A stretch of DNA of 64,000 bases from Candidatus Sericytochromatia bacterium (GCA_036676495.1 JAKFCT010000001.1:1-64000), one strand, 5' to 3'. Positions 8,308 to 58,604 are shown, counted from the first letter of the stretch. Translations and numbers: made by a program. Notes: generated from the letters alone by a model not told the origin.

Positions 8308-8344
8308 GACTGTTCCCCCGGGGTTAACCCCAAACTCCTGAACC

Positions 8345-8359
8345 TTAACCGTAGCTTAA
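8345..8359. promoter_or_regulatory. TTAA-N7-TTAA box
   Basis: ttaa-ccgtagc-ttaa; an additional TTAA at 8324. Confidence 0.6.
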
Positions 8360-8481
8360 TTATAGCGCGTCCATGCGAAACCTTGCGTGGCTAGCGGAAA
8401 AAACTTTCGCCAGTCAGGCAAGCGGGTATAATCCTGACGGAACTTGCCCCTGCTCCCTTCCCCGATCATGAGGAGACCTCC

Positions 8482-9321
8482 GTGTACCAGAAGCTCATCG
8501 CCTCCGTGCTCGCCGCCTCCTGCCTGGTTCTCGCCCCCGCAGCCGCGTGGGCGGCGCTACCGATCGCGCCTCCCCTCGCGCTGGGCCAGTCTCAGACGGC
8601 CAAGCCGTTCCAGTGCGAGCTCGTGACCACGCATGAATACCAGGCCGAGGGGGAGGCCCCGAGCAAGGAAGAGTCCCGCTCGCGCTACTATTCGTCCGGC
8701 TCGCGCCTGCGGATCGACAACCTCGACGATCACTCGGTCTTCATCATGCATGCGGATAAGAACGTCCTTTTCACTTACGAGGGAGAAGGGGATACCTGGT
8801 TCCGCGTTCCCTTGGCAGCCTATACGCAGGTCGCGCGTCAGCAGGCCTACAGCACGCCGGCCAACCGTCAGGCTTACCAGCAAGGCGCGAAGGCCAAGAA
8901 GCCGACCACCGTCACGATGCAAGGTGAGGACGGGAAGCCTCGCAAGATCACGTTCAAACCCGGGGCGCCCGAAACCCTCGACGGGAAGGTTTGCGACGTG
9001 ATGACCCTCGTGGATGACGCGGACAAATCGGAGCTGACCACCTGGACCTGGCGCGAGAAGGGGCTGGTGCTCAAGACCCGAAGCAAGGACGCAAACACCA
9101 CCAGCACGCTCGTCTACCGCAACTACCAGGAAGTCGAGACTCCCGGCGAGATGTTCCTGCCTCCGCCCGAGGCGCGCGTGAAGGAGCTCTCGGTCAAGGC
9201 CGCCAAGGAAGAGCTTCAGCGCGCCGTCATCGACGGCATCCGCGACGGCGCCAAAGAGGCGGTCACCGATGCGGTGAGCGATACGATCCGCAACGCCGTT
9301 CCCATCCGCCTGCCCTGGTAA
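8482..9321 (+). CDS. Secreted protein, DUF4412/LolA-like beta fold
   Basis: Signal peptide ending AAAWA, ETLDGKVCDV, TWTWREKGLVLK, MFLPP. Confidence 0.65.
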   Translation: MYQKLIASVLAASCLVLAPAAAWAALPIAPPLALGQSQTAKPFQCELVTTHEYQAEGEAPSKEESRSRYYSSGSRLRIDNLDDHSVFIMHADKNVLFTYEGEGDTWFRVPLAAYTQVARQQAYSTPANRQAYQQGAKAKKPTTVTMQGEDGKPRKITFKPGAPETLDGKVCDVMTLVDDADKSELTTWTWREKGLVLKTRSKDANTTSTLVYRNYQEVETPGEMFLPPPEARVKELSVKAAKEELQRAVIDGIRDGAKEAVTDAVSDTIRNAVPIRLPW

Positions 9322-9325
9322 ACCC

Positions 9326-10246
9326 TTGGAGGCTTTTCTCGTCGTCAATCCCCGGTCCGCCGACGGCACGACCGAGGCGCAATGGCCGCGCTTCGCCCGC
9401 ATGCTGGATGAAGCGGGCGTGGTGGGCCAGCCCCATTTCACCGAAGGCCCAGGCCATGCCACGGAGTTGGTTCGAGAAGGGCTCGCCGCCGGCCACCGTC
9501 TCATCGTGGTGGTTGGCGGGGACGGAACGCTCAACGAGGCCGTGAACGGCTTCTTCGATGCCGATGGGACGCCGCTCAATCCCAACGCCGAGCTGGGGGT
9601 CATCTGCCGCGGCACCGGGTGCGATTTCATCAAGAGCCTGGGCATCCCCAAGCGTGAGGATCGAGCCCTGCAGCGGATCCTGACCGGATCGAGCCGGGCC
9701 ATCGATGTGGGGCGCGTGCGTTTCCACGACGCTACCGGCCAAGAGCGCGTGCGCTACTTCCTCAACATTGCCGAAGCGGGACTCGGCGGGGCCGTGGTCG
9801 AGCGGGTCAACCGCAGCTCCAAGCGCCTCGGAGGTTTCGCCTCTTTCCTCTTGAACACGCTCGCCACGTTCGCGACCTACCGCAACGGCCTCATGACCGT
9901 GCAGTTCGACGGGGCCCCTCCCGAATCCCTTCGGGCGGCCAACCTGGTGGTGGGAAACGGGCGCTACTTCGGCGGGGGCATGTGCATCCTGCCGGAGGCA
10001 GAGCTCGACGACGGGATCTTCGACGTCCTGATCATGGGGGATCTCAACCGTCTCGAACTCTTCACCAACATCGCCAGGGTCTACCGCGGCAGCCACTTGA
10101 CTCATCCAAAGATTCGGCACCTGAGGGCTCGCGAGATCCGGGTCGAGGGGAAGGCGCCGTTGCTGCTGGATGTCGACGGGGAACAACCCGGCCTCGCGCC
10201 GGCCACGTTCACGATCTTGCCTGGCGCCCTGAGGGTTCGCTGTTAG
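9326..10246 (+). CDS. Diacylglycerol kinase family lipid kinase (YegS/BmrU-like)
   Basis: VVNPRS, GGDGTLNE, GTGCDF, GNGRYFGGG, DVDGE. Confidence 0.9.
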   Translation: MEAFLVVNPRSADGTTEAQWPRFARMLDEAGVVGQPHFTEGPGHATELVREGLAAGHRLIVVVGGDGTLNEAVNGFFDADGTPLNPNAELGVICRGTGCDFIKSLGIPKREDRALQRILTGSSRAIDVGRVRFHDATGQERVRYFLNIAEAGLGGAVVERVNRSSKRLGGFASFLLNTLATFATYRNGLMTVQFDGAPPESLRAANLVVGNGRYFGGGMCILPEAELDDGIFDVLIMGDLNRLELFTNIARVYRGSHLTHPKIRHLRAREIRVEGKAPLLLDVDGEQPGLAPATFTILPGALRVRC

Positions 10247-10331
10247 GCTAATAACGAGCCATCACCGGCCATTCGCCTTGGCATACCGGGCCAAGCGGGC
10301 TAGAATCAGGGGATTCTCAGTTCAGGAGGCC

Positions 10332-10955
10332 ATGATGTCGTTTAACGGCTTTACTCCCGCGGATTTCGCGGTTTTTTCCCTGCCGGGGTTCGAAGAGCGC
10401 ATGGCCGCTCTCAAGCAGGTCGTCCGCCCGAAGCTCGAAGCGCTCGGCAGCTTGCTGGCTCCAAGGCTCAGCGAGACGGTCGGCATGCCCATGTACGCCC
10501 ATGTGGCCAAGCATGCGCGCCGGACGGTGAATCCTCCCAAGGATACCTGGGTGGCGTGGTCGGCGAATGCCCGGGGCTACAAGGCGCATCCGCACTTTCA
10601 GGTCGGCCTCTGGGGAAGCCATGTCTTCGCGCAGTTCGCGTTGATCTACGAGGCGCCGCAGAAGGCGGCGTTCGCGCGCCTGCTAAGCGAGAACCTTCAC
10701 GAGCTGACGCTTCCCGCGCAATTCGTCTGGTCCGGGGATCATACGCAGCCGGCGGGCATGCGCCATGGAGACATGGACGCCGCGGCCTTCGCGACCTTCC
10801 TCGATCGGCTCGAGAAGGTCCAGAAGGCCGAGGCGCTTTGCGGCATCCACGTCATGGCGGAGGATCCGCTCCTCGGCGATGGCGCCGCGCTGGTCGCCCG
10901 GATCGAGGAAGCCTTCCAGGCGACCCTGCCGCTGTATCGCTTGGCGCAAGTCTAG
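10332..10955 (+). CDS. DUF1054 (YktB-like) protein
   Basis: HVAKHARRTVNPPKDTWVA, RGYKAHPHFQVGLW; RBS AGGAGG precedes ATG 10332. Confidence 0.85.
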   Translation: MMSFNGFTPADFAVFSLPGFEERMAALKQVVRPKLEALGSLLAPRLSETVGMPMYAHVAKHARRTVNPPKDTWVAWSANARGYKAHPHFQVGLWGSHVFAQFALIYEAPQKAAFARLLSENLHELTLPAQFVWSGDHTQPAGMRHGDMDAAAFATFLDRLEKVQKAEALCGIHVMAEDPLLGDGAALVARIEEAFQATLPLYRLAQV

Positions 10956-10958
10956 CCG

Positions 10959-11774
10959 TCAGTCCAGCTTCTCCACCTCGAGATCGTCGAAGTTCACCTC
11001 GTTGCCGATGGAGCGCAGGGCCATGAAGTGGGGCCGTGACGGATCGAGATCCGGCACCTGCAACGTGGCCTCGGGCTTGCCGTCGTAGAGCAGCACGAAG
11101 GACTTGTTGGCGACGTCCACGATCCCGCCGACCCGCCGCACGTCTCCCGGCTGGGTGGTGACCGGTCGGTTGTAGAGGCGCTTCCAGCCGCGCCCGTTCA
11201 TGGGTTTGCCGCCGTCGCAGTACCAGACCTGCAGGTCGCGCGGGGTGTTGACGACCTCGAGGTAGTGATCGGCGTCGAGGTAGTAGGGCTGGACCCCTTG
11301 ATCTCCGGTGGGGGGAAGGTTGTACGGGCTCGCGATGGGCTGTTGCGAGACCTCGAAGCGGTAGCGCATGGGCATCTGACCGTTTGGGCCGAAGTGCTTG
11401 CCGCGATAGCGCACGAACGAAACCCAGGGCTCGGGTTGCTTCTCGGTCTGGCGCAGCACCTTGCCGCGAAGCGGCGGCCGATTGACGGTTGCTACCTCCC
11501 AGGTCCCGTCATAGAGCCAGCTGGGCACGGTCTTGCCCTGGGCCGCCATCTCGGCCCGGACTCCGATCCAGTCCGCCGGCAGGGTGCCGACGGCGTCCTT
11601 TTCGAAGTCGAGGCGCAGCAGGCGGGTCGCCGGGGTCTGATTGACCCCGGATTCGGGCGACTCTCCGGTGCCTCCCCCGCCTCCGGGAGCTCCGGGCGGA
11701 CTCGAGCAGGCCACCAGCAAGCCGATCGCCAACCCCAGCCCCAGTCGCGTTCCTCTTGCGGCTCCGCGTCGCAT
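10959..11774 (-). CDS. Lipoprotein with a concanavalin-A/LamG-like beta-sandwich
   Basis: Lipobox LVAC, Gly/Pro linker, DFEKDAVGTLPADW, terminal NFDDLEV. Confidence 0.6.
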   Translation of the reverse strand: MRRGAARGTRLGLGLAIGLLVACSSPPGAPGGGGGTGESPESGVNQTPATRLLRLDFEKDAVGTLPADWIGVRAEMAAQGKTVPSWLYDGTWEVATVNRPPLRGKVLRQTEKQPEPWVSFVRYRGKHFGPNGQMPMRYRFEVSQQPIASPYNLPPTGDQGVQPYYLDADHYLEVVNTPRDLQVWYCDGGKPMNGRGWKRLYNRPVTTQPGDVRRVGGIVDVANKSFVLLYDGKPEATLQVPDLDPSRPHFMALRSIGNEVNFDDLEVEKLD

Positions 11775-11918
11775 GCGGCCCTCCTTCCCCGATCGCGATC
11801 CCAGCCTAGCCCGGCGGGGAGCTTCTTTCGCTTGCTGGAAGATCCAGGGCGCTTCGTGCGAAACGCCGAACGGGAGGCCTTCAGGCCTCCCGTTCGCGGG
11901 GTGTTGCGGGGCGAGCCC

Positions 11919-12848
11919 CTAGACCGGAGGTTGTCCTGGCCGCTTGAGCGTCTCGTCCAAGGCGGCTTCCGGGGAGGCCTCGGTCTCCATGCGGGCGAAG
12001 GTCACGCGCTGGGCCTTGCCCGCGCCGCCCACGGTGGCCATGCGATCCAGGAACATGCGGTTGGGGACGAGCACCACGCCCGCATCCGTGGCGAGCTGGG
12101 TCGAGAGCCAACCGATCCGCTGGATGGTCCCGCTGAGGGTCTTGCCTTCCGCGGTCATGCTCACGGCGTCCCCGCGATCGACCACGCGCTTCAGCTCGGT
12201 CGCGGCCATGAGGTCCGCGGCCTCCGTGCGCAGGCCCAGCCCGAAGGCCAGGGCCGCGGCGAGCGCCACCGCTCCGATCACCGCGGTAAAGAGGATCTGC
12301 ACCAGCTCGGGGGCGATGTTCAGCTGGGTCAGGGCGGCCAGGGCCGCGAAGATCATGATCGCCCAGTACGCCACCTGCCCCAAAAGGTCCGAGGCTTCCA
12401 GGGGAGTGGTCTTGACCAGGTTGCCGATGAACGACGCCAAGAGCGCCCCCAGGGTCACGATCAAGAGGGCCGCGATGACGTTGGGGATGTAGCCGATGAT
12501 GGCCATGAGGGCCGCCGTAACTTGCGGCAGGTTCAGGGCGTCCGCCGCCACCACCAGGGTCACCAGGACCACCAGCCACTTCACCAATTGGGCGACCATG
12601 TTGCTGGGTTCGAGCTTGAGGCCGGTCCGGGCGATCGCCCGATCCACCCCGGCCTTCGCCATCCAGCGATCGAAGCGGAGCGCGTCCAGCCCCTTATCGA
12701 CCAGGGCCGCCAGCACGTTGGCGATCGCCCAGCCCACCAAGAGGATGATAATGGCGCCGATCAGGTTGGGCAGGAACCCGAGGATCCCGCTCAATGCGGC
12801 TCCGACGGCGGCCCAGAGCGCCGCTCCCCATCCAGTCACGGTTTCCAT
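11919..12848 (-). CDS. CmpX/TM_helix-type small-conductance mechanosensitive channel family protein
   Basis: Repeated LPNLIGA/IPNVIAA TM_helix motifs, ALAFGLG, MscS beta domain (GDAV...VPN); RBS GAGGAGG. Confidence 0.8.
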   Translation of the reverse strand: METVTGWGAALWAAVGAALSGILGFLPNLIGAIIILLVGWAIANVLAALVDKGLDALRFDRWMAKAGVDRAIARTGLKLEPSNMVAQLVKWLVVLVTLVVAADALNLPQVTAALMAIIGYIPNVIAALLIVTLGALLASFIGNLVKTTPLEASDLLGQVAYWAIMIFAALAALTQLNIAPELVQILFTAVIGAVALAAALAFGLGLRTEAADLMAATELKRVVDRGDAVSMTAEGKTLSGTIQRIGWLSTQLATDAGVVLVPNRMFLDRMATVGGAGKAQRVTFARMETEASPEAALDETLKRPGQPPV

Positions 12849-12925
12849 TGGCCCTCCTCTCCGGGGGTCTCTGCCGAGGCCCCGTCTTCGGCCCGACCCG
12901 GCGCCCCCTGGCCCGAGTCCGCGCG

Positions 12926-12957
12926 AACCCGGTCCCCTCGCCGACGGGGACCGGGTT
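12926..12957. terminator. Stem-loop downstream of the YtxH gene
   Basis: 12-bp stem aacccggtcccc/ggggaccgggtt. Confidence 0.5.
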
Positions 12958-12966
12958 ACACCGCTG

Positions 12967-13320
12967 CTAGAGGCCCTCCTCGCGGCGCTCCAGGGTGGTG
13001 TCCAGGCGCTCGGCCCCCTCATCCACCCGGCGCTGGGCGCGCTCGGCCGCCTCGTCGACGCTTTGGCGCGTGCGCGAGAGCGCCTCGGGCACCTGCTGCT
13101 GGCCCCGATCGATCAGATCCTGGGCGCGCTCCTGGGTGGAGCGGATCAGCTCGGTGGCGCGCATGCGCCCTTCCACCAGGCGCCCCTGGGCGTCCGTCCG
13201 GAGCGAGTCCGCCTGATCGCGCAAGCGGCGACGCGTCTCCGGGCCCGAGCGCGGAGCCAGCAGGATCGCCGCCCCCGCCCCGATCACCGCTCCGAGGAGC
13301 GTCGCACCTATGCGGTTCAT
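12967..13320 (-). CDS. YtxH-domain general stress protein
   Basis: LLGAVIGAGAAILLAPRSGPETRRRL followed by a helical tail; RBS AAGGAGGT. Confidence 0.85.
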   Translation of the reverse strand: MNRIGATLLGAVIGAGAAILLAPRSGPETRRRLRDQADSLRTDAQGRLVEGRMRATELIRSTQERAQDLIDRGQQQVPEALSRTRQSVDEAAERAQRRVDEGAERLDTTLERREEGL

Positions 13321-22596: not shown

Positions 22597-22615
22597 TTAA
22601 CGCACTCTTAACGCA
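22597..22615. promoter_or_regulatory. TTAA-N7-TTAA box (direct repeat ttaacgca x2) over the -35 position of a CATAAT promoter
   Basis: ttaacgcactc-ttaacgca; CATAAT at 22626-22631. Confidence 0.65.
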
Positions 22616-22673
22616 AACTTTGCGCCATAATGGCAGATAACTTGCTAGGTCCCACGTTGAAAGGAGAGTCCGC

Positions 22674-23864
22674 ATGCTTCGCTCGTCGCGTCTGGTCGCC
22701 GGCACCGTCATGCTGGCCGTCGCCGCCATCGTGGGATGTGGCCCCTCGCCCTTCGCCGCCCCCGTCGGCAGTCAGATCGACGGCAGCTTGAGCCTTCGCT
22801 CCACCGGCTACAAGGCCTTCTTCGGCATCCAACACACCCACGTCGCCGAGAACGGCGATGATGGCCAAGGCACCCTCGCGGAAGCCTATACCTACGCCCG
22901 CGACAAAGGCAAGCTCGACTTCCTGGGGATTTCCTCCCACTCGCACATGATCAGCGACGCCGGCTACGCCACGATGAAGCAGGCGGCCAAGGACTTCACC
23001 CAGTCGGGCAAGTTCGTGGCCTTGCTGGCCCAGGAGTGGAGCTCGATCTCGAAGGGCGGCCACATCAACATCTTCGAAGCCGACGAGCGCTGCCCGGTTC
23101 CGAACGGCGACTGGGCGACCTTCTACACCAAGTGGCTGCCGGCCCACCCCGAGGTGGCCTGGGCCCAGTTCAACCATCCTCACCCCTCCAACCAGCTGGA
23201 GTTCGGCGGCGCGTCCTTCTCCCCCGTCGCCCCCGGCCCCGCCGCCGTCTCGGCCCTTCACAAGTTCGCGGGCATGGCCCTCCTGAACGGTCCCGGGAAG
23301 TACGAAGGCGAGGACATGAAGGGGCAACCCGACGACTGGGACCGCGGGGTCAACGGCCTCAATTACGAAGAGGAGTACAAGGAGTTCCTCAACCGCGGCT
23401 GGCGCATCGGTGCCGTGGGGGACCAGGACAACCACGTGAAGAACTGGGGGCTCGCCTCCCCGACCCGCACGGGCATCTGGGCTCCGTCGCTGACCAAGCA
23501 GAACGTGCTGGAGGCCTTCCAGGCGCGCCGGACCTACGCGACCTACGACCCGAACTTGCAGTTCTGGTTCAGCCTCGACGGCAAGCCGATGGGCTCCGAG
23601 ATCCGGGCCGGCAAGGAGATCACCGTCGAGATTCAGGCGGCCGACCCGGATACGGCCTTCGAGCGCATCGAGCTCTACGGAGACACCGACGGCGTCGGCG
23701 GGCGGCCCGCCACCGTGATCAGCAAGGTCGCCGTGGGCAAGAAGGCCGCCAAGTGGACCTTCAAGATTCCCGCCCCGCAGGCGGAAGGCTATTACTTCGC
23801 CAAGCTCGTCTATGGCGATCGCACCGCCTGGGCCTGGACCAGCCCGGTCTGGGTCAGCCGTTAA
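22674..23864 (+). CDS. PHP-domain (CehA/McbA-like) metallohydrolase lipoprotein with Ig-like C-terminus
   Basis: Lipobox IVGC, HTH, QEWS, GGHIN, FNHP, DQDNH, AWTSPVWV. Confidence 0.8.
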   Translation: MLRSSRLVAGTVMLAVAAIVGCGPSPFAAPVGSQIDGSLSLRSTGYKAFFGIQHTHVAENGDDGQGTLAEAYTYARDKGKLDFLGISSHSHMISDAGYATMKQAAKDFTQSGKFVALLAQEWSSISKGGHINIFEADERCPVPNGDWATFYTKWLPAHPEVAWAQFNHPHPSNQLEFGGASFSPVAPGPAAVSALHKFAGMALLNGPGKYEGEDMKGQPDDWDRGVNGLNYEEEYKEFLNRGWRIGAVGDQDNHVKNWGLASPTRTGIWAPSLTKQNVLEAFQARRTYATYDPNLQFWFSLDGKPMGSEIRAGKEITVEIQAADPDTAFERIELYGDTDGVGGRPATVISKVAVGKKAAKWTFKIPAPQAEGYYFAKLVYGDRTAWAWTSPVWVSR

Positions 23865-30810: not shown

Positions 30811-31743
30811 TTACTTGAGGGGGATTCCGGCGGCCTGCGCCGCGTTCTTCAGTTGTTCCAACCCGTCGGCGGGCCGCAGGATCGTGATCGCTTCCGCGGT
30901 CTTGCGCGGATCGATGCCGCCGTAGACGATGCCCTCGATCAGCTTGCTGGACTCCTTGGGGCCGATGTTCTCCTTGACGATCCGGTTGACCGTGAGGTGA
31001 GGAAGATCGAAGTAGGTGACGCGCGACTCCTTGAACGCCTCGCGAGCATTCAGGCGCTTGGCGAAGAAGTTGTGGTTGCCGTCCGAGAAGAGGACCCGGC
31101 CCGCCAGTTCGGCCTCCTTGTACTGGACCGTGAGGTTTCCGTACTTGGCGATGTCCTGGGCGTACTTCTTGTTGCCGCCCACCGTGACATAGAGCGGATT
31201 GTGCTCGCGTAGTCCCAGGCGGATATCCGCCAGGTTGCGGCCCGCGACGTAGGAGACGCCCTTGCTGTCGATCTGGGTTTTCAAGGGCAGATCGTAGAGC
31301 GAGCGAATCTTCCCTTCGTTGAGCGCGTTGCTGAAGGAGAGGTTGGTGTAATTGGCCGCGATGACCTGCTGCTTCTTGAAATGCGTGATGAGGGCGTCGT
31401 ACTTCGCCTCGGCCTTGACGCGACTGCCGAATTTCTCGGTAAGGATGCCGAGGGTCTCTTCCTTGTAGCGCGCGGCGTTGGCCTTGCTCTGCTTCCAGGC
31501 GGCGGCGACCTCGGGGTGGAGCTCGATGCGCGTGGCCTTCACGGGGCGGAACTCGGTCTTGACGAGCTTGAGCTTCTTGCCTTCGATGAGCTGGCGGGCA
31601 GACTCGGAGACGAAGAGGGAGTCCTTGGCGACCTTGCCCGCGATTTCGCGCGTTGCCGTCTTGGCCGCATCGTCGCTCACCGAGCTGAACGACTGGCGCA
31701 TCCAGGTCCGAAGGCCTTCCATCCCCTGACGCACGACGCTCAT
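30811..31743 (-). CDS. Hypothetical effector-like protein; C-terminal half resembles DUF3626/ADP-ribosyltransferase fold
   Basis: RBS AGGAGGT; P-x-Y, YG, R-x-x-F and IEGIVYGGI motifs; low-complexity N-terminus. Confidence 0.6.
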   Translation of the reverse strand: MSVVRQGMEGLRTWMRQSFSSVSDDAAKTATREIAGKVAKDSLFVSESARQLIEGKKLKLVKTEFRPVKATRIELHPEVAAAWKQSKANAARYKEETLGILTEKFGSRVKAEAKYDALITHFKKQQVIAANYTNLSFSNALNEGKIRSLYDLPLKTQIDSKGVSYVAGRNLADIRLGLREHNPLYVTVGGNKKYAQDIAKYGNLTVQYKEAELAGRVLFSDGNHNFFAKRLNAREAFKESRVTYFDLPHLTVNRIVKENIGPKESSKLIEGIVYGGIDPRKTAEAITILRPADGLEQLKNAAQAAGIPLK

Positions 31744-31782: not shown

Positions 31783-31809
31783 CTATCGACCGAGGAGGGG
31801 AGAACTTTC
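31783..31809 (-). promoter_or_regulatory. Sigma28 (FliA)-like promoter
   Basis: GAAA-N15-GTCGATAG versus consensus TAAA-N15-GCCGATAA. Confidence 0.6.
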
Positions 31810-32121
31810 TTGTCGACGCTCTAAGAATGCTTTAAGGCTCCGAGCCGAAGGACGGACAGTGAGCGACGGAGCGGGTTGACCCTGGAACGAAACCCGATCA
31901 ATAGCTTAAAGATGCGCTAAGTAGTTTTCTCTGTTATCCTCTACACAGGCAACGGCGCCATCCTCCGGTGGGACTCAGAGGGCTCGAGAGGTTCAGGACC
32001 TCCGGGCTTGCGCTTTGCCGAACTTCATCAAAGCGTGTTACGATCCACCGGCAGGCTGGTATCGTCGCAAGGTACGTAAAACGGGGCCTTCAGGCCTCAT
32101 GTCGTCAAAGGAGCTTTCCCC

Positions 32122-43399: not shown

Positions 43400-43474
43400 G
43401 TAAGCTTCGGTTAAGCTTCCTGGAAAAACGCAAGGCGGGACGCGAAGACTCCGATACCGTTAATGGGTCGTTAA
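43400..43474 (+). promoter_or_regulatory. Sigma28-like promoter flanked by two TTAA-N7-TTAA-type boxes
   Basis: GTAA-N7-TTAA at 43400-43414; CAAG-N15-TCCGATAC at 43431-43457; TTAA-N7-TTAA at 43460-43474. Confidence 0.6.
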
Positions 43475-43494: not shown

Positions 43495-44286
43495 ATGGCC
43501 ATCTCGAACGCAACTTATGCCTCGGCCGGCCAGGTGCAGCGCCTCCGCTCCAACCGCCCGCTCGACACGGTCTCTCGGGCGATGGGCATCCACGTCCCCA
43601 CGAGCCTTTCGCCCGCGAAGCTGGCGAAGGACGTCAAGACCGACGTGGTCGCCTCGATTCCTTTCGACGCCCTCTTCACCAGCCAGGAATACCGCCGTGG
43701 CGAGCTCACGGCGAAGGAGTACGTGGCCAAGACCCTCAGCACCTCGGTCAGCTCGGTCGCCTGGACCGTCGGCGGCGCGATGATGGGTGCGCTCTTGGCA
43801 CCGGCCGGACTTCCCGCCCTCATGGTCGGCATCGCCGGGTTCGCCACCGGGCTGGTCGCCACCACGATCTGGGATAGGACGGTCGGCAAGCAAGTCACCG
43901 AAGCCATTGAGACGGTCATTCCGGAAGCTCTGGCCGAGCCGGTGGCCGAGGTCTTCACCAAGGCGATCGCCAACCCCCTTTACGACGCCGTCTGGAAGCC
44001 GCTCACCGAAGTCGTGACCCCCGCCTTCCGCTGGGCCATGCAGAACAAGGTCACGGCAGGAGCCGCTTTGGGCGGTCTGGCACTGCTCTTCCCCAATGCC
44101 GCCAAGGCGATCGCCCCCGAGGTCCTGACGATGGCCGGCGGCATGGCGGCGGGAATCGCGTTCACCGGCAAGGTGATCGACCCCATCCTGCCTCCCGTCG
44201 AGGAGCAGGCCGAAGCGCCCGCGAAGGCCGCCAAGGCCAGCGGCGCCGGCCAGGCCGCAGGCATCCACTTCGCCCGCATCCGCTAA
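43495..44286 (+). CDS. Hypothetical protein with Gly/Ala-rich hydrophobic hairpins, no Sec signal
   Basis: RBS AGGAGGT; hydrophobic segments AWTVGGAMMGALLAPAGLPALMVGIAGFATG and AGAALGGLALLF. Confidence 0.7.
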   Translation: MAISNATYASAGQVQRLRSNRPLDTVSRAMGIHVPTSLSPAKLAKDVKTDVVASIPFDALFTSQEYRRGELTAKEYVAKTLSTSVSSVAWTVGGAMMGALLAPAGLPALMVGIAGFATGLVATTIWDRTVGKQVTEAIETVIPEALAEPVAEVFTKAIANPLYDAVWKPLTEVVTPAFRWAMQNKVTAGAALGGLALLFPNAAKAIAPEVLTMAGGMAAGIAFTGKVIDPILPPVEEQAEAPAKAAKASGAGQAAGIHFARIR

Positions 44287-48029: not shown

Positions 48030-49145
48030 CTAGAGGCCGAAGATCGCCTCGAAGGGATCGACCGCTCCGTGGCCGTAGGTGTCGTCCCGACCGCGATCGC
48101 CCAGGTCATCGGCGGTCTTGTAGAGGCGCTCGCGGATCTGGGCGGGCGTCCAGTCGGGATTCTTGGCGACCAGCAGCGCGGCGACGCCGGCGACGTAGGG
48201 AGCCGCCATCGAGGTGCCGGTGTAGTTGGCGAAGGAATCGTCGGGAACCGAGGAGCGAATCGCGGTTCCGGGAGCCGAGAGGTCGACGGCGGGGCCGCGG
48301 CTGGAGCTGGGATGGGTCTTGAGCGGGCGGGAATGGTCGTCCAGGTTGGCCACGGAGATGACGTTCGGCGAGTTGCCGGGGTAGCCGACGGTATCGGCCT
48401 TGTCCGTGCCGTTGTTGCCCGCGGCCACCACCACGACGACCCCCTTGGACTCGGCGTAGCGAATGGCTTCCTCGACCTGCTTGACCTTGCGGCCGTGAAC
48501 GAACTTCATCAGCCAGCCGTCCATCTGGATCCCGAGGCTGATGTTGATGACCTTGGCGCCATGGTCGGCCGCGTAGCGGATGCCGTCGGCGAGCTGCGGC
48601 ATGAACTTGGTGTTGGAGGTGGAGAGGTTGGGAATCTTGATCGGCAGAATCGACGCGCCCTGGGCCACCCCTTCGAGCCCCTCGGAGGGGAAGGACCCGG
48701 CGATGATGCCGGCGACATGGGTGCCGTGCCCCATGGTGTCCTCGACGTCCCGGCCCTTGGTCTCGACGTTGTAGCCGGGAAGCAAGCGGCCCTTGAGGGC
48801 GGGGTGATCGGTGTCGACCCCCGAGTCGATGACCGCGACCACCACCTGGCCCTGCGGGATCTCGCCGAAGCCGTCGTCGGTGAAGAGCACGGAGGCCTCC
48901 GCGCCGTCAAGGGAGAGGCGATCGCCCCGGCTCACGCTGGCGTCGGCGCCAAGACGGGCGACGCGGCTCTCGGTGCGGGCCGCGCCGCTCAAGAGCAGCA
49001 CGTCCTGGCCCTGGCGGGCGATCACGCTGGGAAGGCCGTCCTTGGCCGCTTCGGCCTGCAGCAGAGCCCGATTGGCCGCCGTGTCGCGAAGACGCTTGGC
49101 CGTGGCGAGGGTCTGGAGCTGGGACGAGCGGGTCTGAACAGCCAT
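48030..49145 (-). CDS. S8 subtilisin-family serine peptidase without Sec signal peptide
   Basis: IDSG, HGTHVAG, AAGN, GTSMAAP; RBS AGGAGG. Confidence 0.92.
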   Translation of the reverse strand: MAVQTRSSQLQTLATAKRLRDTAANRALLQAEAAKDGLPSVIARQGQDVLLLSGAARTESRVARLGADASVSRGDRLSLDGAEASVLFTDDGFGEIPQGQVVVAVIDSGVDTDHPALKGRLLPGYNVETKGRDVEDTMGHGTHVAGIIAGSFPSEGLEGVAQGASILPIKIPNLSTSNTKFMPQLADGIRYAADHGAKVINISLGIQMDGWLMKFVHGRKVKQVEEAIRYAESKGVVVVVAAGNNGTDKADTVGYPGNSPNVISVANLDDHSRPLKTHPSSSRGPAVDLSAPGTAIRSSVPDDSFANYTGTSMAAPYVAGVAALLVAKNPDWTPAQIRERLYKTADDLGDRGRDDTYGHGAVDPFEAIFGL

Positions 49146-49192: not shown

Positions 49193-49240
49193 TTAACGTT
49201 ATCGCCCCTTTGATTTAAATCTTTCTTAGAATTTTCTTAA
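49193..49240 (-). promoter_or_regulatory. Sigma28-like promoter overlapped by 11-bp-phased TTAA repeats
   Basis: GAAA-N15-GGCGATAA (49225-49199); TTAA 49193, TTAA 49215, TTAG 49226, TTAA 49237. Confidence 0.65.
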
Positions 49241-51505: not shown

Positions 51506-51867
51506 GGGTAGACCTGTTTTCCGGGCGTGACGAGCGCGTGACCTTCTCCCAGGGTCCGGACGGCTTGATCGTAGCCATGCGGGGAAAGGCCGACCTGGAG
51601 GTCATGGCGCGGGCGCTGGAGTCGCTGCACCAGGAGGCGCTCGCGCGCCGGCATCCGGGAGTCACCCTGGACCTGAGCCAGCTGGAGCCCTTGGAGCCGG
51701 CGGCGGTGAAGACCTTGATCAAGTGGGCCATGCGCCAGGCGGAGCTGGATGAAGCCGAGCGCTACGGGATCGTCTTGAGGTACTCGGAGAGCGTGTCCTG
51801 GCAGAAGGTGAGCCTCGCAGCGGTCGCTCACCTTTGCCCGTACGTCAGGCTCGGGCCTATCGCGTGA
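51502..51867 (+). CDS. STAS/SiaC-like small protein
   Basis: VTLDLSQLE...W, WQKVSL; ATGA overlap with the DGC gene. Confidence 0.55.
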   Translation: MRVDLFSGRDERVTFSQGPDGLIVAMRGKADLEVMARALESLHQEALARRHPGVTLDLSQLEPLEPAAVKTLIKWAMRQAELDEAERYGIVLRYSESVSWQKVSLAAVAHLCPYVRLGPIA

Positions 51868-52750
51868 GGGACGCGGCGGAGATCACGTCCACGTCGGTCG
51901 GAATCACCGGGGGAATGGTCTCGCCGTCGAGGGCCTTGACCAGCGTCTGAACCCCGAGTTTCCCCATTTGTTCGGGCTTCTGGGCGATCACCGCCTGGAC
52001 CGTCCCGTTGCGGACCAGTTTCAACATGGCAGGGGTCGCATCGAAGGCCACCACGGCGACCTTGCGGCCGCTGCGCCGGATGACGTCTCCGACGGCGGGA
52101 CCCGCGATGGCGTTGTCGGTGAAGAAGGCGCTGAGATCGGGATGCGCGTCCAAGGTCTCGCGCGCGATGCGCCGCGCGTTGTCGCGGCTCCCCATATCCG
52201 CTTGATCGCTCAAGAGGCGAATCCGGGTGCCCAGCATGGCGCGTCGGAAGCCTTCGACGCGCTGCCGGAGATTTTGGGCCGTGGGCACGCCGGTCACGAT
52301 GGCGACTTTGCCTTTGGAGGTGAGGCCGAGCATGGCCTCACCGGCCTTTCGACCCGCCAGGAGGTTATCGGTGCCGATATAGGCGAGCCGATCCTTGTCG
52401 ACGGTATCGGTATCGAAGGTGACGACCTTGATGCCCGCGCGGACCGCCTTGCGGACGACCGGTCCCAGGGCCTTTGAGTCGACGGGAGCAATGGCGATGC
52501 CGTCGACTCCCTGCGCGATGAGTTGCTCGACGTGGCGAATCTGCGTGGCCGTATCGGTTTCGCGCTCCGGGGCCTTCAAAAGGAGGCGCACGTGCTGCCG
52601 CTTGGCCTCACGCTTGGCGGATCGGGTCACGGATCCCCAGTACTCTCCTTGAAGGCTCTTGCAGACCAGGCCCAAGCGGTACGTCTTGGCCTCCGCAGGC
52701 GCAGCGGTCGCCATGCACAGGGCCAGGATCAAGAAAAAGCGTCGCATCAT
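51857..52750 (-). CDS. Periplasmic sugar-binding protein (RbsB-like), orphan
   Basis: Signal peptide, VDGIAIAP, YIGTDN, AFD, QKP..MG. Confidence 0.88.
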   Translation of the reverse strand: MMRRFFLILALCMATAAPAEAKTYRLGLVCKSLQGEYWGSVTRSAKREAKRQHVRLLLKAPERETDTATQIRHVEQLIAQGVDGIAIAPVDSKALGPVVRKAVRAGIKVVTFDTDTVDKDRLAYIGTDNLLAGRKAGEAMLGLTSKGKVAIVTGVPTAQNLRQRVEGFRRAMLGTRIRLLSDQADMGSRDNARRIARETLDAHPDLSAFFTDNAIAGPAVGDVIRRSGRKVAVVAFDATPAMLKLVRNGTVQAVIAQKPEQMGKLGVQTLVKALDGETIPPVIPTDVDVISAASLTR

Positions 52751-52939
52751 GGGGCCATCCTGTCCGGGATCGTGAACGCGTGACGTGATGGCACCAGTCT
52801 AGCATAAGCAGGCGCTCGTCTGGCATTCATGCGGGCGGAGGCTTTCTTTAAACCTCCGTGAAAGGTTGATTGAATCGGGCAAGTTTGCATGGGGACGGCG
52901 TATAATTTTCGAAGCAAGTTTCCGAAAGGAGGCCTCCGC

Positions 52940-53554
52940 ATGCTCGACTCGATAGGCAAGCTCGCGTCCCGCGCCCTCACGGCCCCCTTCCGGGCGACGC
53001 CGCCGGTCGCCGAGTCCCCCGCCGCGCCGCCCTCCCCAGGCAAGCCGTCTGCTGCCGCGGATCGGGCCATCGGCCTCGCGGGACGCGAGCAGATCGCGGC
53101 GTTCGCCCAGCCGCTCACTCCGCTCGAGGAGTTTCGCGAGCAGGCGCAGGCCATGATGGCCGGGATGGACGTCCTCACTCGGGTCGAGGCCGAGCGGATG
53201 CTGGCGGCGTTGACGCGCGACCTCAATCCCGGCGAGTCGCTGGGCGAGTTCCGCGCCCAGCTCAAGACGATGTTCAACAAGTTCAAGCAGTTCGTGGACG
53301 GCAAGCAGGACGAGCAGCGCCACGTCAGGGCCGAGGCCGACGCGCAGTGGCTGCTGTTCTACCAGTCTCTCGAGCGCTACCTCTTGCAGCTCGCGACGCT
53401 CGCGAAGGTGGAAGCCGACGTGCTGGACCGCCGCCAGAAGGAGTCGAAGAGCGAGGCCGTGTATAGCGAGCGCCTGCTGGTCGCCGCCGCGGCGACCCAG
53501 GCTCCGGAGCAGCGGGTCACGTTGTTGAGCGCGCAGCTGAGCCGGAAGTCTTAA
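52940..53554 (+). CDS. Hypothetical helical protein with Pro/Ala-rich N-terminus
   Basis: RBS AAAGGAGG, GC3 bias. Confidence 0.7.
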   Translation: MLDSIGKLASRALTAPFRATPPVAESPAAPPSPGKPSAAADRAIGLAGREQIAAFAQPLTPLEEFREQAQAMMAGMDVLTRVEAERMLAALTRDLNPGESLGEFRAQLKTMFNKFKQFVDGKQDEQRHVRAEADAQWLLFYQSLERYLLQLATLAKVEADVLDRRQKESKSEAVYSERLLVAAAATQAPEQRVTLLSAQLSRKS

Positions 53555-53693: not shown

Positions 53694-55343
53694 TTGGGCT
53701 TCCCATTCGGCCTTCCACCGATCACGCGCTATCGGCAGATTTTTTCCGTCATGGCGCGCTATGGCTTCGCGGATCTGGCCGAGGAGCTGGGCTACGAGGG
53801 CCTGATTCCTCGCACGTGGCGCCGCCCGCGCCCGGAGGCGGATCCCGACGAAACGCGCGCGCTCAACCTTCGCCTGGCCCTTCAGGAGCTGGGGCCCACC
53901 TACATCAAGCTGGGGCAGGTGCTCTCCACCCGCCCCGATCTCCTCCCGGCCCCCTACATCCGCGAACTGGAAAACCTTCAGGACCGCATCCCCCCCTTTC
54001 CGGGCGAGATCGCCAAGGCCCTGATCGAAGCCGAGCTGGGAGCTCCCATCAGCGAGCTCTTCATGGTCTTCTACGACACGCCGCTCGCTTCGGCCTCCCT
54101 CTCCCAGGCCCATGAAGCCATCCTTCCCGACGGCACCCAGGTGATCGTCAAGGTCCAGCGGCCGGAGGCCGCCGATCGGGTGAAACGGGACATCCCCGCG
54201 CTGCGCAGCCTCGCGAAGCTCTTCGAGTCCCGCACCGAATGGGGGAAGCTCTACGACCTGACCGGAGTGGTCAACGAGCTCGAGCGCAACCTCCTCATGG
54301 AGCTGAACTTCCTGCGCGAGCGCTTCAACCTCGAGACCCTGGCCGAAAACCTCGCGCCCTTTCCGCGGATCAAAGTTCCCAAGGTCTATCCCGGCTACTC
54401 CAGCCCGCGGGTGCTGGTCATGGAGCGCGTCTTCGGCAAGAAGCCCAATGGCGGCAGGCGGGAACCGGAGCTCGCCATCGAGTTCCTGCGCGCGTTCCTC
54501 AAGCAGTTCGCCGAAGACGGCTTCTTCCATGCCGATCCCCACCCGGGAAACGTCCTGCTGACCGAGGACGGCGACCTCTACCTGATCGACCTGGGCATGG
54601 TGGGCTACCTGGACTCCCGGACGCGCCGCGGAGTGACCAAGTTCCTGCTGGCCATGATGGGGCATCGCGGCGACACCGCGGCCGAGGTGCTGGTCGAGCT
54701 GGGGGATCCCTTGCGGGACTTCCAGATGAACGTCTACCGGCTGGAAATCGGGCGGTTGGTCTCGCGGTTCCACAACACCCCGCTCTCCGAGCTGAACGTC
54801 GGCGAGGTCATGACCGAGGCGGTCCGGATCGGCTCTCAGAGCCGGCTGCGATTCCAGTCCCAGCTCTTGCTGCTGGTGAAGGCCTTGACCCAGATCGACG
54901 GCATCGCCCGCGCGCTGGATCCGGAGGCGGATCTGCTCGACATCCTCCAGCCCTACTTGCCATCGGTGGTGGCCGATCAGGTCGGGGAGCTGACCAGCCC
55001 CATGAACCTCCTGCACACCGGCATCGAAGCCACCGAAGTCGCCCTCGACCTGCCGCGCAAGATGAGCATCCTGCTGGACAAGATCAACGCCGACAACCGG
55101 ATCCGCATCCAGTTCGAGCATGTCGCGCTGGCGGAGGCCTTCGAGCCCTTCGGCAAGTGGATCAACCGGATCGTGCTGGGGATCGTCTTCGCGGCCCTGG
55201 CGATCGCCTCGGCCATGATCATCTCCACCGGGGCAGGCCCCCAGTGGTTCGGTCACCCGGCGCTGGGGGTGCTGGGCTTTTTCTTGTCGATGCTGCTCGG
55301 CATCTACCTGGTCGTGACGATCCTCCGCACCCGCCTGCTCTGA
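53694..55343 (+). CDS. ABC1/UbiB/AarF family atypical kinase
   Basis: LGPTYIKLGQ, ASAS, VKVQRP, HADPHPGN, DLGMVG, two C-terminal TMs. Confidence 0.92.
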   Translation: MGFPFGLPPITRYRQIFSVMARYGFADLAEELGYEGLIPRTWRRPRPEADPDETRALNLRLALQELGPTYIKLGQVLSTRPDLLPAPYIRELENLQDRIPPFPGEIAKALIEAELGAPISELFMVFYDTPLASASLSQAHEAILPDGTQVIVKVQRPEAADRVKRDIPALRSLAKLFESRTEWGKLYDLTGVVNELERNLLMELNFLRERFNLETLAENLAPFPRIKVPKVYPGYSSPRVLVMERVFGKKPNGGRREPELAIEFLRAFLKQFAEDGFFHADPHPGNVLLTEDGDLYLIDLGMVGYLDSRTRRGVTKFLLAMMGHRGDTAAEVLVELGDPLRDFQMNVYRLEIGRLVSRFHNTPLSELNVGEVMTEAVRIGSQSRLRFQSQLLLLVKALTQIDGIARALDPEADLLDILQPYLPSVVADQVGELTSPMNLLHTGIEATEVALDLPRKMSILLDKINADNRIRIQFEHVALAEAFEPFGKWINRIVLGIVFAALAIASAMIISTGAGPQWFGHPALGVLGFFLSMLLGIYLVVTILRTRLL

Positions 55344-55464
55344 GGCGGAGCGTCACTCCCGCAAGGACGATGGGGGATCCCGGCAAGACGACCCTTGACC
55401 AAGCGCCCGGAACGCGCGTAAACTTTCTTAACACTCCTGACATGGAGGGGAGAGGGGATGCGTC

Positions 55465-56094
55465 ATGAACCTGGAAATCGGCGCGGAGGTGCTGGGCCCT
55501 GACGGGAAACTCGGGACGCTGACTCAGATCGTGATCGAGCCGCTGGGAGAGCGGGTCACCCATGTGATCGTGGAGCGGGGCGGGCTTCACCCCTGGGAGA
55601 AGGTGGTCCCCACCGACACCCTCACGCACACGGAAAACGCGCGGGTCTGGACGACGCTCAGCCTCAGCGAGATGGAAGCCCTTCCCGATTTCCTCTCGCT
55701 CAGCCACTCGGAGACGGCGCCGGCGATGCCCACGGAGGTTCCGCTGGCGGACTTGCAGCCGGTCGGCCTCCTCTGGCCGTCCAACGTGCTCGGCTGGTAC
55801 TTGCCCTCTCATCAGAGCCGCACCCCGGCTCCTCCCCAGGCCAACCTGCCTCCCGGCTCGCACGGCCTCAAATCCGGCACCGAGGTGCATTGCCGGGACG
55901 GGATGGTGGGGCACCTCGACGAGGTCGTCTACGACCAAGCGTCGGGCCGTGCCACGGGGATGATCATCCGGAAGGGCTTCTTCTTCGCGCGGGAGCTGGA
56001 GGCCCCCATCGACTGGGTGGAGGCCATCAACGACACGATCCGGTTGCGGGTCAGCTGCGACGAGGTCCCGCCGCGGCGCCGGCGGCGTCGCTAG
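55465..56094 (+). CDS. Tandem PRC-barrel protein
   Basis: Two G.EV...DG..G....VV repeats; polyArg tail. Confidence 0.75.
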   Translation: MNLEIGAEVLGPDGKLGTLTQIVIEPLGERVTHVIVERGGLHPWEKVVPTDTLTHTENARVWTTLSLSEMEALPDFLSLSHSETAPAMPTEVPLADLQPVGLLWPSNVLGWYLPSHQSRTPAPPQANLPPGSHGLKSGTEVHCRDGMVGHLDEVVYDQASGRATGMIIRKGFFFARELEAPIDWVEAINDTIRLRVSCDEVPPRRRRRR

Positions 56095-56095
56095 C

Positions 56096-57121
56096 TTACT
56101 CGTTCGCCCAGAGGGTGGCGGTGTCCAGGCCGATCGCCCCGATCCGGACGAGGTTGGCCGGATTGAAACGGTCCCCGGGAGCCTTCGCGATCCGATCGCG
56201 CTCGGGCAGGGTGTCGTCAGGCGTGTGCAGGTACTTGCTGAAAACCGGCTCCGCGTAGTAGCAGATGGCCCGCACTCCGGCCTTGCGGAACGCCGCGTGA
56301 TCGCTGGATGCTCCCGGGGGCAGGGCCTCGTGGGCATGGCCGCGCTCCCCATGAGGCACCTTGAATTCGCCGTAAAGCGGCTGCATGCCGCGGCGGCGGG
56401 CGATCGCCTCGATCGGATCCACCGACTTCGCCCCGGTCCGGATCCAGTCCGTCCCCAGCGTATCCGTCTGACCCACCGCGATGCAGTCCAGGTTGACCAT
56501 GCCCGCGATCTGCTTCAGGGCGATGGGCTGAGCGCCCGACGCGGTCGGCACAACCGGGTTACGGGTGTAATAGGTGGACCCGATCAGGCCCAGTTCCTCC
56601 CCCGAGAAGGCCATGAACATCACGCTGGACTTGGGCCCCTTGCCCGCCTTGGCGCGCTCGGCCATGACCCGGGCGATCTCCAGCACCGCCGCGGTGCCTC
56701 CGGCATTGTCATTGGCCCCAAAGTAAATCGTGTTGCCGCGTTTGCCCAGGTGATCCTTGTGGGCGCCGACGACGACGAAGCGATCGGGGCGCTCCGAGCC
56801 CTTCAAGACGGCGATGACGTTGTAGGCCGTCCCGCTGAAGCGGCGATCGGTGAAGGGCTGGAGGGTGACTTCGAGGCCCAGCTTGCGGAACTGCTCGACC
56901 AGGTAGGTGTCAGCGAGGGCGTCTCCCTCGGACGCGGTCATGCGGCCGGCCAGGGCGGGCTCGGTGAGGTAGGCGACGTGCGCGACCGCGCGGGCGGCAT
57001 CGAGGGGGTTGCTCTCGGACGATGCCGACAGCGGAGAGCCCACCTGGTGCTGAAGGGACGGAGACGGTCCCCCACAGGCGGCTAGCAGAACGATCACGCC
57101 AAGGCTTGCAAGCTTTCTCAT
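56096..57121 (-). CDS. M28 family peptidase lipoprotein
   Basis: Lipobox LAAC, GAHKDH, GANDNAGG, GEELGLIGS, SDH, HTPDD. Confidence 0.9.
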   Translation of the reverse strand: MRKLASLGVIVLLAACGGPSPSLQHQVGSPLSASSESNPLDAARAVAHVAYLTEPALAGRMTASEGDALADTYLVEQFRKLGLEVTLQPFTDRRFSGTAYNVIAVLKGSERPDRFVVVGAHKDHLGKRGNTIYFGANDNAGGTAAVLEIARVMAERAKAGKGPKSSVMFMAFSGEELGLIGSTYYTRNPVVPTASGAQPIALKQIAGMVNLDCIAVGQTDTLGTDWIRTGAKSVDPIEAIARRRGMQPLYGEFKVPHGERGHAHEALPPGASSDHAAFRKAGVRAICYYAEPVFSKYLHTPDDTLPERDRIAKAPGDRFNPANLVRIGAIGLDTATLWANE

Positions 57122-57176
57122 CCGACCCTCCCTCGTTTCCGTGTCAGGAAAAGCATAAGGGATAATCGAATTTTAA

Positions 57177-58604
57177 TCAATCCTTTACCAAGCCACCGGT
57201 CGCCTCCCCGAATTCAGGGGCGAGGGACGGCGAGGACGCAGCAGATAAGGGCGAGGGTTGACCAGAGAAGGGCGAGGGTTGACCGGAGAAGAGCGACGAG
57301 AGGCGGAAGTCCACGAACTGCTGGGGGTCGTCGACCTGTTCGCGTCCCATGGAGACCCAGAGGCGATCGCCCTGGAGCTGGGAGACCATGGCCGTGACGG
57401 ACGTGAGACGCCCCCAGTCTCCCAATACCACGGGGCCCAGGGCCATGCGGACCGGGACGGAGCGCGAGATCGACTGGGCCGTGGGGCCGCGCGTCCCGGA
57501 AACCGGATCGATGAGGTCCGCGAGCACGGCCTTCGCGCGTTCGGGATCGAGCTGGCCGTACTGGGCGGCCAGAAGCTTTCCGAAGCGCTCGTCCCGTGCG
57601 CCCGGCTTCGCCTGCGAGAGGCCTTGGGCTTTGAAGGTCCCCATGCTCTGGGCGAGATCCGCGAGCGAACCGCCCGAGCCATAGGATCTCGCGGCGACCT
57701 GGCCGCCGGAGGCCTCGACGTAGCGGGCGCCTTCGCCTTGGGCCAGGGTCGCGACGAAGGCCTGGCTGGTCGCGCCGGCGGCACGGCGCAGCTCGGCCTC
57801 GGCGGCATCCGGGCCTTCGGCGTTCATCACGCGCAGCGTGAGCCAGCGCGGGGGCAGGCCCGCCGTCTTCGAAGCACCTGCCACCGGGTCGATGGCGGCG
57901 AAGAGGCCGTTCTCGCTCCATGCGGCCTCGGCGGCCAAAGAGCCGACCCGGGTCAAGGCGACCCAAGCGGGGCCCGATTCCGGGTGATGCACCCAGAGCA
58001 TGGTGAAGCGCTGGCGCGTCCCGAAGGTGAGATCATCCGAGATGCGGCCGAGGAGGGGCCTTCCGTCGAGGCTGGCCTTCCCGCGGGCGATGAAGCCGCC
58101 GCCGCCCGGCAGCAGGGCGGGCAGGTTCTTGGAGAGCGCGGCGTAAGGGGGATCGGTGGAAAGCAGCAGGATATCCGCCATGGCGAGCCCGGAGCCCGTG
58201 GCGAGGCCTCTCAGGAAGTCCCGCTCGTCCTGGGTGAGGTGCCGATCCTGCTGGCGCGCGTAGAAGCGGTGGACGAAGCCCGGCGTCAGGACGAAGGCCG
58301 GAAAGGCGCGTCGCTCATGGTAATCGCGGACCTGATCGCGGATGCGCTCGCGCATGAGGGTGCCCTGCTGCATCCCGGCCTGGAAAAGCGTTCCACGGGT
58401 CTCCATGATCAGGACTCCCCGGTCCCGGATGACCCGCCCCTGGGTATCGACGCTCTTGGCGATGACCTGGCGCTCGGGCATCGCGGGGCCATTGGGGACG
58501 TTGGGAATGGCCTCTCCACAAGCGACCAGGAGAGACGCCCCCAGCAAAAGGGCAGGAAGAGCGAACTTGGGACGGACGATCTGGGGCAACGGTCTATGCT
58601 CCAC
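57177..58604 (-). CDS. C45/Ntn-hydrolase-like lipoprotein, nucleophile Cys apparently absent
   Basis: Lipobox LVAC, G.QQG..MRE.I, GLATGSGL, ASLDGRPLLGR, SENGL. Confidence 0.55.
   Translation of the reverse strand: MEHRPLPQIVRPKFALPALLLGASLLVACGEAIPNVPNGPAMPERQVIAKSVDTQGRVIRDRGVLIMETRGTLFQAGMQQGTLMRERIRDQVRDYHERRAFPAFVLTPGFVHRFYARQQDRHLTQDERDFLRGLATGSGLAMADILLLSTDPPYAALSKNLPALLPGGGGFIARGKASLDGRPLLGRISDDLTFGTRQRFTMLWVHHPESGPAWVALTRVGSLAAEAAWSENGLFAAIDPVAGASKTAGLPPRWLTLRVMNAEGPDAAEAELRRAAGATSQAFVATLAQGEGARYVEASGGQVAARSYGSGGSLADLAQSMGTFKAQGLSQAKPGARDERFGKLLAAQYGQLDPERAKAVLADLIDPVSGTRGPTAQSISRSVPVRMALGPVVLGDWGRLTSVTAMVSQLQGDRLWVSMGREQVDDPQQFVDFRLSSLFSGQPSPFSGQPSPLSAASSPSLAPEFGEATGGLVKD
57243..57291. 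repeat. 21-bp in-frame tandem duplication in the gene 3' end (FSGQPSP x2)
   Basis: aagggcgagggttgacc at 57247 and 57268. Confidence 0.85.

Follow-up and report, generated by a model that had tools for sequence, protein, structure and literature searches.

A genome-wide TTAA-N7-TTAA operator tied to exported proteins in an uncultured Sericytochromatia bacterium, with an SphR/PhoB orthologue as its likely reader

Several described regulatory systems come close to the operator considered here. In the Alphaproteobacteria, the consensus of CtrA is reported as TTAA-N7-TTAA (PMC11264516). In cyanobacteria, the response regulator SphR is described as binding 8-bp CTTAACCT repeats with 3-bp linkers (PMC1906773), so the cyanobacterial Pho box likewise amounts to TTAA-N7-TTAA, and gel shifts in Synechocystis are reported in which every TTAA core matters for PhoB binding (PMC11126600). 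SphU is described as a negative regulator of the kinase SphS in Synechocystis (PMC7760821), and a 10-bp period is given for the RpaB site (10.1101/443713). The present work concerns a 64,000-nucleotide stretch of Candidatus Sericytochromatia bacterium (GCA_036676495.1, JAKFCT010000001.1:1-64000; hereafter the window, numbered from its first letter), in which an initial annotation had reported perfect copies of TTAA-N7-TTAA at 8345, 22597 and 43460. The three copies are present, and none arose in 100 shuffles of the window. Throughout, a box is TTAA-N7-TTAA, a core is TTAA, and the cores of a box stand 11 bp apart. On balance, the boxes are likely sites of the bacterium's SphR/PhoB orthologue, which would globally regulate lipoproteins and secreted hydrolases instead of phosphate uptake.

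The source genome (G000) is a 4.14-Mb assembly of 106 contigs and 66% GC, in which our own gene calls gave 3831 genes. A search of the assembly for 16S rRNA found none; the named records nearest one of its regulators belong to Ca. Sericytochromatia or to an unclassified 'bacterium' (76-100% identity among the matches listed), and phylum-level matches are named cyanobacterial proteins. The organism is an uncultured, non-photosynthetic relative of cyanobacteria. The comparison set comprised 31 genomes of the class, 27 from the order of G000 and the remainder (G027-G030) from other orders.

The spacing of TTAA pairs across the genome carries a clear signal. Between spacers of 3 and 12 bp, 90 perfect pairs have a spacer of 7, compared with 2-16 at every other length, giving the peak at 7 that the initial annotation had proposed to look for; over the wider range of 0-40 bp, only spacers 18 (33 pairs) and 29 (19 pairs) stand out from the remaining counts of 1-16. 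Intergenic DNA holds 85 of the spacer-7 pairs, far above both dinucleotide shuffles (mean 2.55, maximum 6, n=20) and permutation of positions (mean 9.96, maximum 16, n=200). The 22-bp echo also exceeds its permutation control (31 intergenic pairs at spacer 18, maximum 18), and the 33-bp echo does not (17 intergenic pairs at spacer 29, maximum 19). To these may be added some 200 one-mismatch pairs above background. Convergent gene pairs enclose 13% of intergenic bases and only 2 of the 89 perfect sites in non-coding DNA. Sites occur on 49 of the 106 contigs, so the signal derives neither from a single island nor from a contaminating contig. Phased DNA bending was rejected as an explanation because other A/T tetranucleotides have no comparable peak at spacer 7 (AATT 7, TATA 1, ATAT 1, TAAT 11 and TTTA 19, versus 90 for TTAA), and restriction or methylation was rejected by reasoning, since the sites, far from being depleted, are enriched and lie in intergenic DNA.

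The same spacing is conserved in relatives. In each of the 27 genomes searched from the order, pairs at spacer 7 outnumber those at spacer 9 by a factor of 4.8 or more; since these genomes are kin, this demonstrates conservation rather than independent replication. In G027, from another order, the counts are 43 and 5. When strict Pho-type pairs were set against a +2 spacing control, the counts were 28/0 in G000 and 5/3, 2/1 and 28/14 in three genomes of the phylum from other classes. Orienting the sites, whether by expectation-maximisation or by downstream gene, revealed little information outside the cores. The TTAA pair is a real, genome-wide and order-wide operator of a known kind.

Genes behind the boxes are rich in predicted lipoproteins. 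In non-divergent regions, and by a simple lipobox rule, lipoproteins are encoded behind 21 of 41 perfect boxes, compared with a background of 34/904; the proportion is 4/7 behind 22/33-bp pairs, 14/73 behind one-mismatch boxes, 1/16 behind unphased TTAA pairs, 11/134 behind a single TTAA and 22/767 where TTAA is absent, and AT-matched promoters lacking a box give 21/348. Among genes with their own upstream region, a box is carried by 66 of the 131 lipoproteins versus 282 of 2035 genes, and by 11/19 subtilases, 6/10 phospholipase-D-like genes, 4/4 clostripain-like genes and 2/2 M28 peptidases. In four genomes of three other families, a predicted lipoprotein adjoins the box at 10 of 21 loci (six genomes were searched with a strict pattern, two yielding no match). 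The initial annotation's picture of a global, OmpR-type operator with an 11-bp period, strongly tied to exported proteins in a non-alphaproteobacterium, is therefore upheld.

Of the 223 motif-linked and regulator-neighbour proteins listed, 208 went through family scans in two halves, one against Pfam and the other against NCBIfam (104 proteins, within a set of 110 that includes added sigma factors); 58 of these 110 matched no NCBIfam family at E <= 1e-12, a count with no background set beside it. Named targets include subtilases, phospholipase-D-like and clostripain-like proteins, M28 and M23 peptidases, LysM and peptidoglycan-binding proteins, amylases, a 5'-nucleotidase, a glycerophosphodiesterase, a Flp pilin, a flagellar rod gene, kinases and an RpoD-like sigma factor, together with housekeeping genes at the far side of divergent regions. 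By local searches, hydrolase families are expanded in the genome (24 subtilase-like, 11 phospholipase-D-like and 18 LysM-related matches). Boxes also lie upstream of RpoD-like (G000:C44:9814-10836) and SigF-like (C88:41547-42299) sigma factor genes, which may put additional sigma factors under the control of the regulon.

As regards the protein that reads the box, the initial annotation had proposed a CtrA-like regulon. A CtrA-like cell-cycle master regulator, or RpaB, would be suggested by the identity of the core with the CtrA consensus (PMC11264516), by an RpaB orthologue above its cut-off (338.8 bits, cut-off 330) and by the boxes of the flagellar rod and Flp pilin genes. The CtrA framing did not stand. 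Ten winged-helix matches were found in G000, three of which were scanned against NCBIfam, the others being inspected or placed in a tree that held no CtrA reference; the CtrA model scored 166.8 and 156.2 bits, far under its cut-off of 350, and was not among the best 25 matches of the third protein. ChpT (PF10090) gave 0 matches in G000 and was matched in the Caulobacter control, GANTC is not depleted, and no box lies upstream of the flagellin gene. As for RpaB, whose HLR1 regulon is marked by octamer repeats, the 10-bp period reported for its site (10.1101/443713) would require a spacer of 6, for which there are only 16 sites, inside the permutation control (maximum 19), compared with 85 at spacer 7. 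This alternative is largely refuted and deserves next to no credence. We attribute the likeness to the CtrA box to probable convergence among OmpR/PhoB-family regulators, and advise against annotating TTAA-N7-TTAA as a CtrA box outside the Alphaproteobacteria. The RpaB orthologue, accompanied by two RpaA-like divergent regulators recognised by eye, is also of note in a non-photosynthetic genome (C27:57535, C91:6456, C36:12546).

A better candidate is C31 (G000:C31:49063-49752), the reciprocal best match of cyanobacterial proteins called PhoB in some sources. It scores 269 bits, versus 213 for the next paralogue, and forms a clade with the cyanobacterial PhoB-named proteins (SH-aLRT 98; two quick trees of 59 and 23 rows); its recognition-helix segment is the same as that of the cyanobacterial SphR/PhoB type, and it lies below the generic TIGR02154 cut-off (275 < 296.2). 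Orthologues with 85-99% identity are encoded in 23 of 26 relatives of the order, the three others being assemblies 64-86% complete, and with 77-79% identity in 4/4 others of the class. The best match of cyanobacterial SphS in G000 is the kinase C41 (C41:5392-6450; two query kinases, with a narrow margin for one), which has an orthologue in 31/31 genomes. This gene stands directly behind the C31 orthologue in G027, G028 and G029, and by coordinates in G030, as in cyanobacteria, and at 24/27 loci in the order of G000 it follows an M20 hydrolase instead. Because kinase and regulator adjoin in the other orders of the class, gene order indicates that the pair is inherited and was then split in the order of G000. 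The earlier suggestion of an undescribed regulator is thereby weakened: the likely reader is of the described SphR/PhoB type, and it is the regulon that appears new.

Two further kinase associations were set aside. The histidine kinase C23:46478, directly preceded by a perfect triple box (G000:C23:46449-46474), is not the best match of SphS and was rejected as its orthologue. A tie between the SphS-type kinase and an RsbV/RsbW-like anti-sigma module was dropped, the link being found at only 2/30 loci; the anti-anti-sigma and anti-sigma-like genes after the kinase (G000:C41:4526-5337) occur only in this genus. Upstream of the regulator gene itself (G000:C31:49752) lies a GGTTAA ... GGTAA element, conserved across the order, that resembles the SigB/SigF promoter consensus and hints at a cascade.

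Orthology with SphR and SphS raises the alternative that the boxes still mark a phosphate-starvation regulon, in which the SphR orthologue, with PhoU-free sensing, would induce enzymes for liberating phosphate bound in organic matter or prey. The targets include a 5'-nucleotidase, a glycerophosphodiesterase, several phospholipase-D-like enzymes, a tyrosine/dual-specificity phosphatase and an H+-pyrophosphatase; apart from the last, these fit a phosphate meaning and speak against the reading preferred here, and the PhoB regulon of Synechocystis is itself reported to extend past phosphate (PMC11126600). However, proteases and cell-wall enzymes are as common among the targets as phosphoesterases. 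PstS, PhoX and PhoD were not found in G000, and none of the phoA, Na/Pi symporter and phosphonate-binding protein genes that are present has an array upstream. Among the 31 genomes of the class, full-length PstS-family matches occur in three, with weak partial matches in four more, and a one-mismatch pair lies at just 1/3 of these PstS-family loci. PhoU (TIGR02135, E <= 1e-25) was found in 0/31, compared with 12 of 14 controls, and the sole PhoU domains of G000 lie within its Na/Pi symporter. We thus regard a retained phosphate regulon as unlikely. Phosphate sensing and uptake in the class merit attention in their own right, PhoU having been found in none of the 31 genomes and PstS in few; G000 has a Na/Pi symporter.

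Many boxes are associated with a second promoter element. CGATA is enriched in box-bearing promoters (45/126 versus 75/858) and forms the -10 of a bipartite GCAAG-N17-CGATAA element in 77 upstream regions of G000, with a strong strand bias in non-divergent regions (50 sense versus 5 antisense). The element, in which the -35 reads GCAAG, resembles the sigma-28 promoter consensus; of FliA/WhiG-type sigma factors, G000 has one above the cut-off and one below, and its flagellin gene lacks the element. Upstream of the sigma-28-like -35, TTAA cores cluster at -4/-5, -14/-15, -25/-26, -36/-37 and -47, and 45 of 67 such cores fall in 11-bp phase, compared with 21% expected, the phase set having been chosen after the histogram was seen; a smaller class lies half a turn off, at -9 and -19/-20. 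Phased cores upstream of a -35 would be the layout expected of an activator array, and boxes just downstream of a -10, such as that at 43460, would fit repression. No fixed distance from box to a sigma-70 -10 element was found.

This anatomy also bears on whether the reader belongs to the OmpR family at all. A nucleoid-associated or other helix-turn-helix protein, or an alternative sigma factor acting through an upstream element, might recognise the phased A/T cores: the flanks hold little information, half-site orientation is uncoupled, one class of TTAA directly abuts the -35, and GTTAA is the -35-like part of the SigB/SigF-like pattern, which was found in ~21 upstream regions. Against this stand the lack of a comparable spacer-7 peak for other A/T tetranucleotides, the occurrence of boxes at more than one phased distance, and also past the -10, in positions out of reach of a sigma domain, and the complete lack of lipoproteins (0/13) behind sigma-28-like promoters that have no box. 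Such a reader is, in our judgement, quite improbable.

Within the window, a scan for one-mismatch pairs gave 11 matches, compared with a shuffle mean of 0.75. The features read as follows.

8345..8359, no strand: perfect box, 122 bp ahead of the exported-protein gene at 8482
8482..9321, plus strand: 279-aa protein with predicted signal peptide and no Pfam family; likely target
22597..22611, plus strand: perfect box, the last core beginning 5 bp before the predicted -35
22613..22640, plus strand: predicted sigma-28-like promoter, inferred from sequence (-35 GCAAA at 22613, -10 AGATAA at 22635)
22674..23864, plus strand: 396-aa predicted lipoprotein, putative metal-dependent phosphoesterase, family unconfirmed
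30811..31743, minus strand: 310-aa protein lacking a signal peptide, for which there is just a weak SopF/OspC-like (ADP-ribosylating-fold) lead
31783..31809, minus strand: possible sigma-28-like promoter of the 30811 gene, GAAAG ... CGATAG, found by eye and under the scan threshold
31821..31835, minus strand: one-mismatch box, cores at -26 and -15 from the -35-like element of the 30811 gene
31906..31920, no strand: another one-mismatch box; it lies between the 30811 gene and an E1 dehydrogenase operon, which diverge from each other
43400..43414, plus strand: one-mismatch box upstream of the -35; with its last core at -19, it is out of the main phase by half a turn
43430..43457, plus strand: predicted sigma-28-like promoter GCAAG-N17-CGATAC, retained in orthologous promoters
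43460..43474, plus strand: perfect box that covers the predicted start site, immediately past the -10 (a repressor-type position)
43495..44286, plus strand: 263-aa protein, no Pfam family
48030..49145, minus strand: subtilase (Peptidase_S8), likely target of the 49215 triple array
49215..49240, minus strand: triple array TTAA/TTAG/TTAA in 11-bp steps
52848..52873, plus strand: weak triple TTAA/TGAA/TTGA between divergent genes 51857-52750 and 52940-53554; may be chance
56096..57121, minus strand: M28 peptidase lipoprotein, lipobox present if the start is taken at 57121
57162..57187, minus strand: triple array ATAA/TTAA/TTTA, ~40 bp upstream of the M28 lipoprotein start

The one-mismatch pairs listed by the initial annotation at 31821, 31906, 43400, 49215, 49226, 52848 and 57162 were recovered, and a further pair lies at 57173; the proposed full triple at 52848/52859/52870 was not, its cores reading TTAA/TGAA/TTGA, so that two mismatches fall in the second pair. 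The TTAA at 8324 sits 21 bp, not 22 bp, ahead of 8345, and the 49215 array ends 10 bp before a minus-strand CGATAA -10-like element (49204-49199). In promoters orthologous to that at 22597, the cores are retained with altered spacers, a pair with at most one mismatch being present at 9/13 loci (G000 included), six of them perfect. Relatives of the 263-aa protein occur in 17/31 genomes, and such a pair lies upstream at 13/18 loci, again with changed spacers. Of the gene labels, 'subtilisin' and 'M28' were borne out, 'PHP' comes down to a weak DUF3604 match (E 9.5e-5), and 'ART-like' to SopF- and OspC-named Atlas clusters at 0.87-0.88, under the 0.9 threshold.

Several observations weigh against C31 as the global reader. 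The spacer-7 excess is only ~2.3-fold in G028 and G029, though both carry the regulator, and there is none in the AT-rich G030 (902 versus 1115), though it too encodes the regulator. A pair with at most one mismatch lies in only 6/28 upstream regions of the regulator gene, leaving autoregulation through a full box unsupported, and 25 of 45 non-divergent perfect-box promoters fit none of three simple promoter patterns. The G000 assembly is 92% complete and 6.7% contaminated, and its gene starts and lipoprotein calls derive from our own heuristics. The flanks of the 89 sites speak both ways: they agree with the Pho consensus at 4.03 of 8 positions, more than in shuffles (3.36; maximum 3.79, n=1000), a signal in favour of C31 though a weak one, and no common orientation emerged for the two half-sites of a pair (r 0.06, p 0.29), contrary to what is expected of a strict head-to-tail dimer. 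Binding by C31 is therefore something that we infer, and the paralogue C34 (C34:23404-24123) is a real rival. C34 has its own adjacent membrane kinase and a recognition helix that differs from the SphR type by few residues, and it could read the box alone or with the SphR orthologue; it is 76-91% conserved among the close relatives listed, a one-mismatch pair and several TTAA cores lie upstream of it, and the promoter of nearby C34:20141 carries a perfect box. A second C34-type match occurs in 28/31 genomes (identity checked for one), so co-occurrence cannot separate C31 from C34. However, placing C34 with the cyanobacterial PhoB clade was rejected (p-AU 0.006); it is not an SphR orthologue, and no tested relative therefore links it to TTAA repeats. 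We consider C34 a rather unlikely reader, albeit one to be taken seriously.

If C31 is indeed the reader, the SphS-type kinase C41 would phosphorylate it, and C31 would line up on two to three cores adjoining the -35 or one to three turns upstream of it, aiding RNA polymerase that carries a FliA/WhiG-type or other sigma factor; boxes over the start site, as at 43460 in the window, would repress or cap output. The input to the kinase is probably not the Pst/PhoU route, and the output resembles a programme of digesting and scavenging, possibly by predation. A bolder version, in which SphS-SphR without its Pst/PhoU sensor now acts as a CtrA-like master switch and, together with a sigma-28-like factor, controls ~200-300 promoters of a predatory or necrotrophic secretome, is a tentative idea that we hold to be doubtful.

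What appears new is the rewired regulon, as both the kind of operator and the type of regulator are already known. None of the best 15 of 889 and the best 10 of 56 papers mentioned Sericytochromatia, and by title or start of abstract none of those listed treated its gene regulation, which is not proof of absence in print. If the bolder version is true, it would offer the first regulatory evidence on how these uncultured cyanobacterial relatives feed, and it would raise the question of whether SphR had its phosphate role from the start or gained it later. The proposed regulon would also provide a clear example of a conserved two-component system whose DNA motif stayed the same as its input and targets changed. 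In practical terms, ~90 perfect sites and ~200 further excess sites form a testable list with a named candidate regulator and kinase, and half of the predicted lipoproteins, many of them family-less, are marked as one likely co-regulated set.

Compared with described systems, the operator shares with the CtrA regulon of the Alphaproteobacteria its TTAA-N7-TTAA consensus, a regulon on the order of 100 promoters, and sites at or near the -35 and over the start site, as reported for CtrA (PMC11264516); it differs in that no CtrA orthologue or ChpT was found in G000 and in having other targets. The FliA (sigma-28) attack-phase regulon of Bdellovibrio bacteriovorus provides a parallel for a sigma-28-like promoter serving a lifestyle programme globally, although its abstract names no Pho-type activator (PMC3627812), and the likeness is an analogy only, which does not show predation in this organism. 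Closest is the cyanobacterial Pho box with SphS-SphR, with which G000 shares the TTAA core, the 11-bp period, arrays of two to three repeats, a weak preference for CTTAACCT flanks, and an orthologous regulator and kinase that are adjacent in other orders of the class. Unlike the cyanobacterial system, G000 has no PhoU that could be found, PstS is rarely found in its class, and its phoA and phosphate transport genes are arrayless; the regulator and kinase genes are split in its order, its targets are mainly lipoproteins and hydrolases, and many of its boxes are phased to a sigma-28-like promoter.

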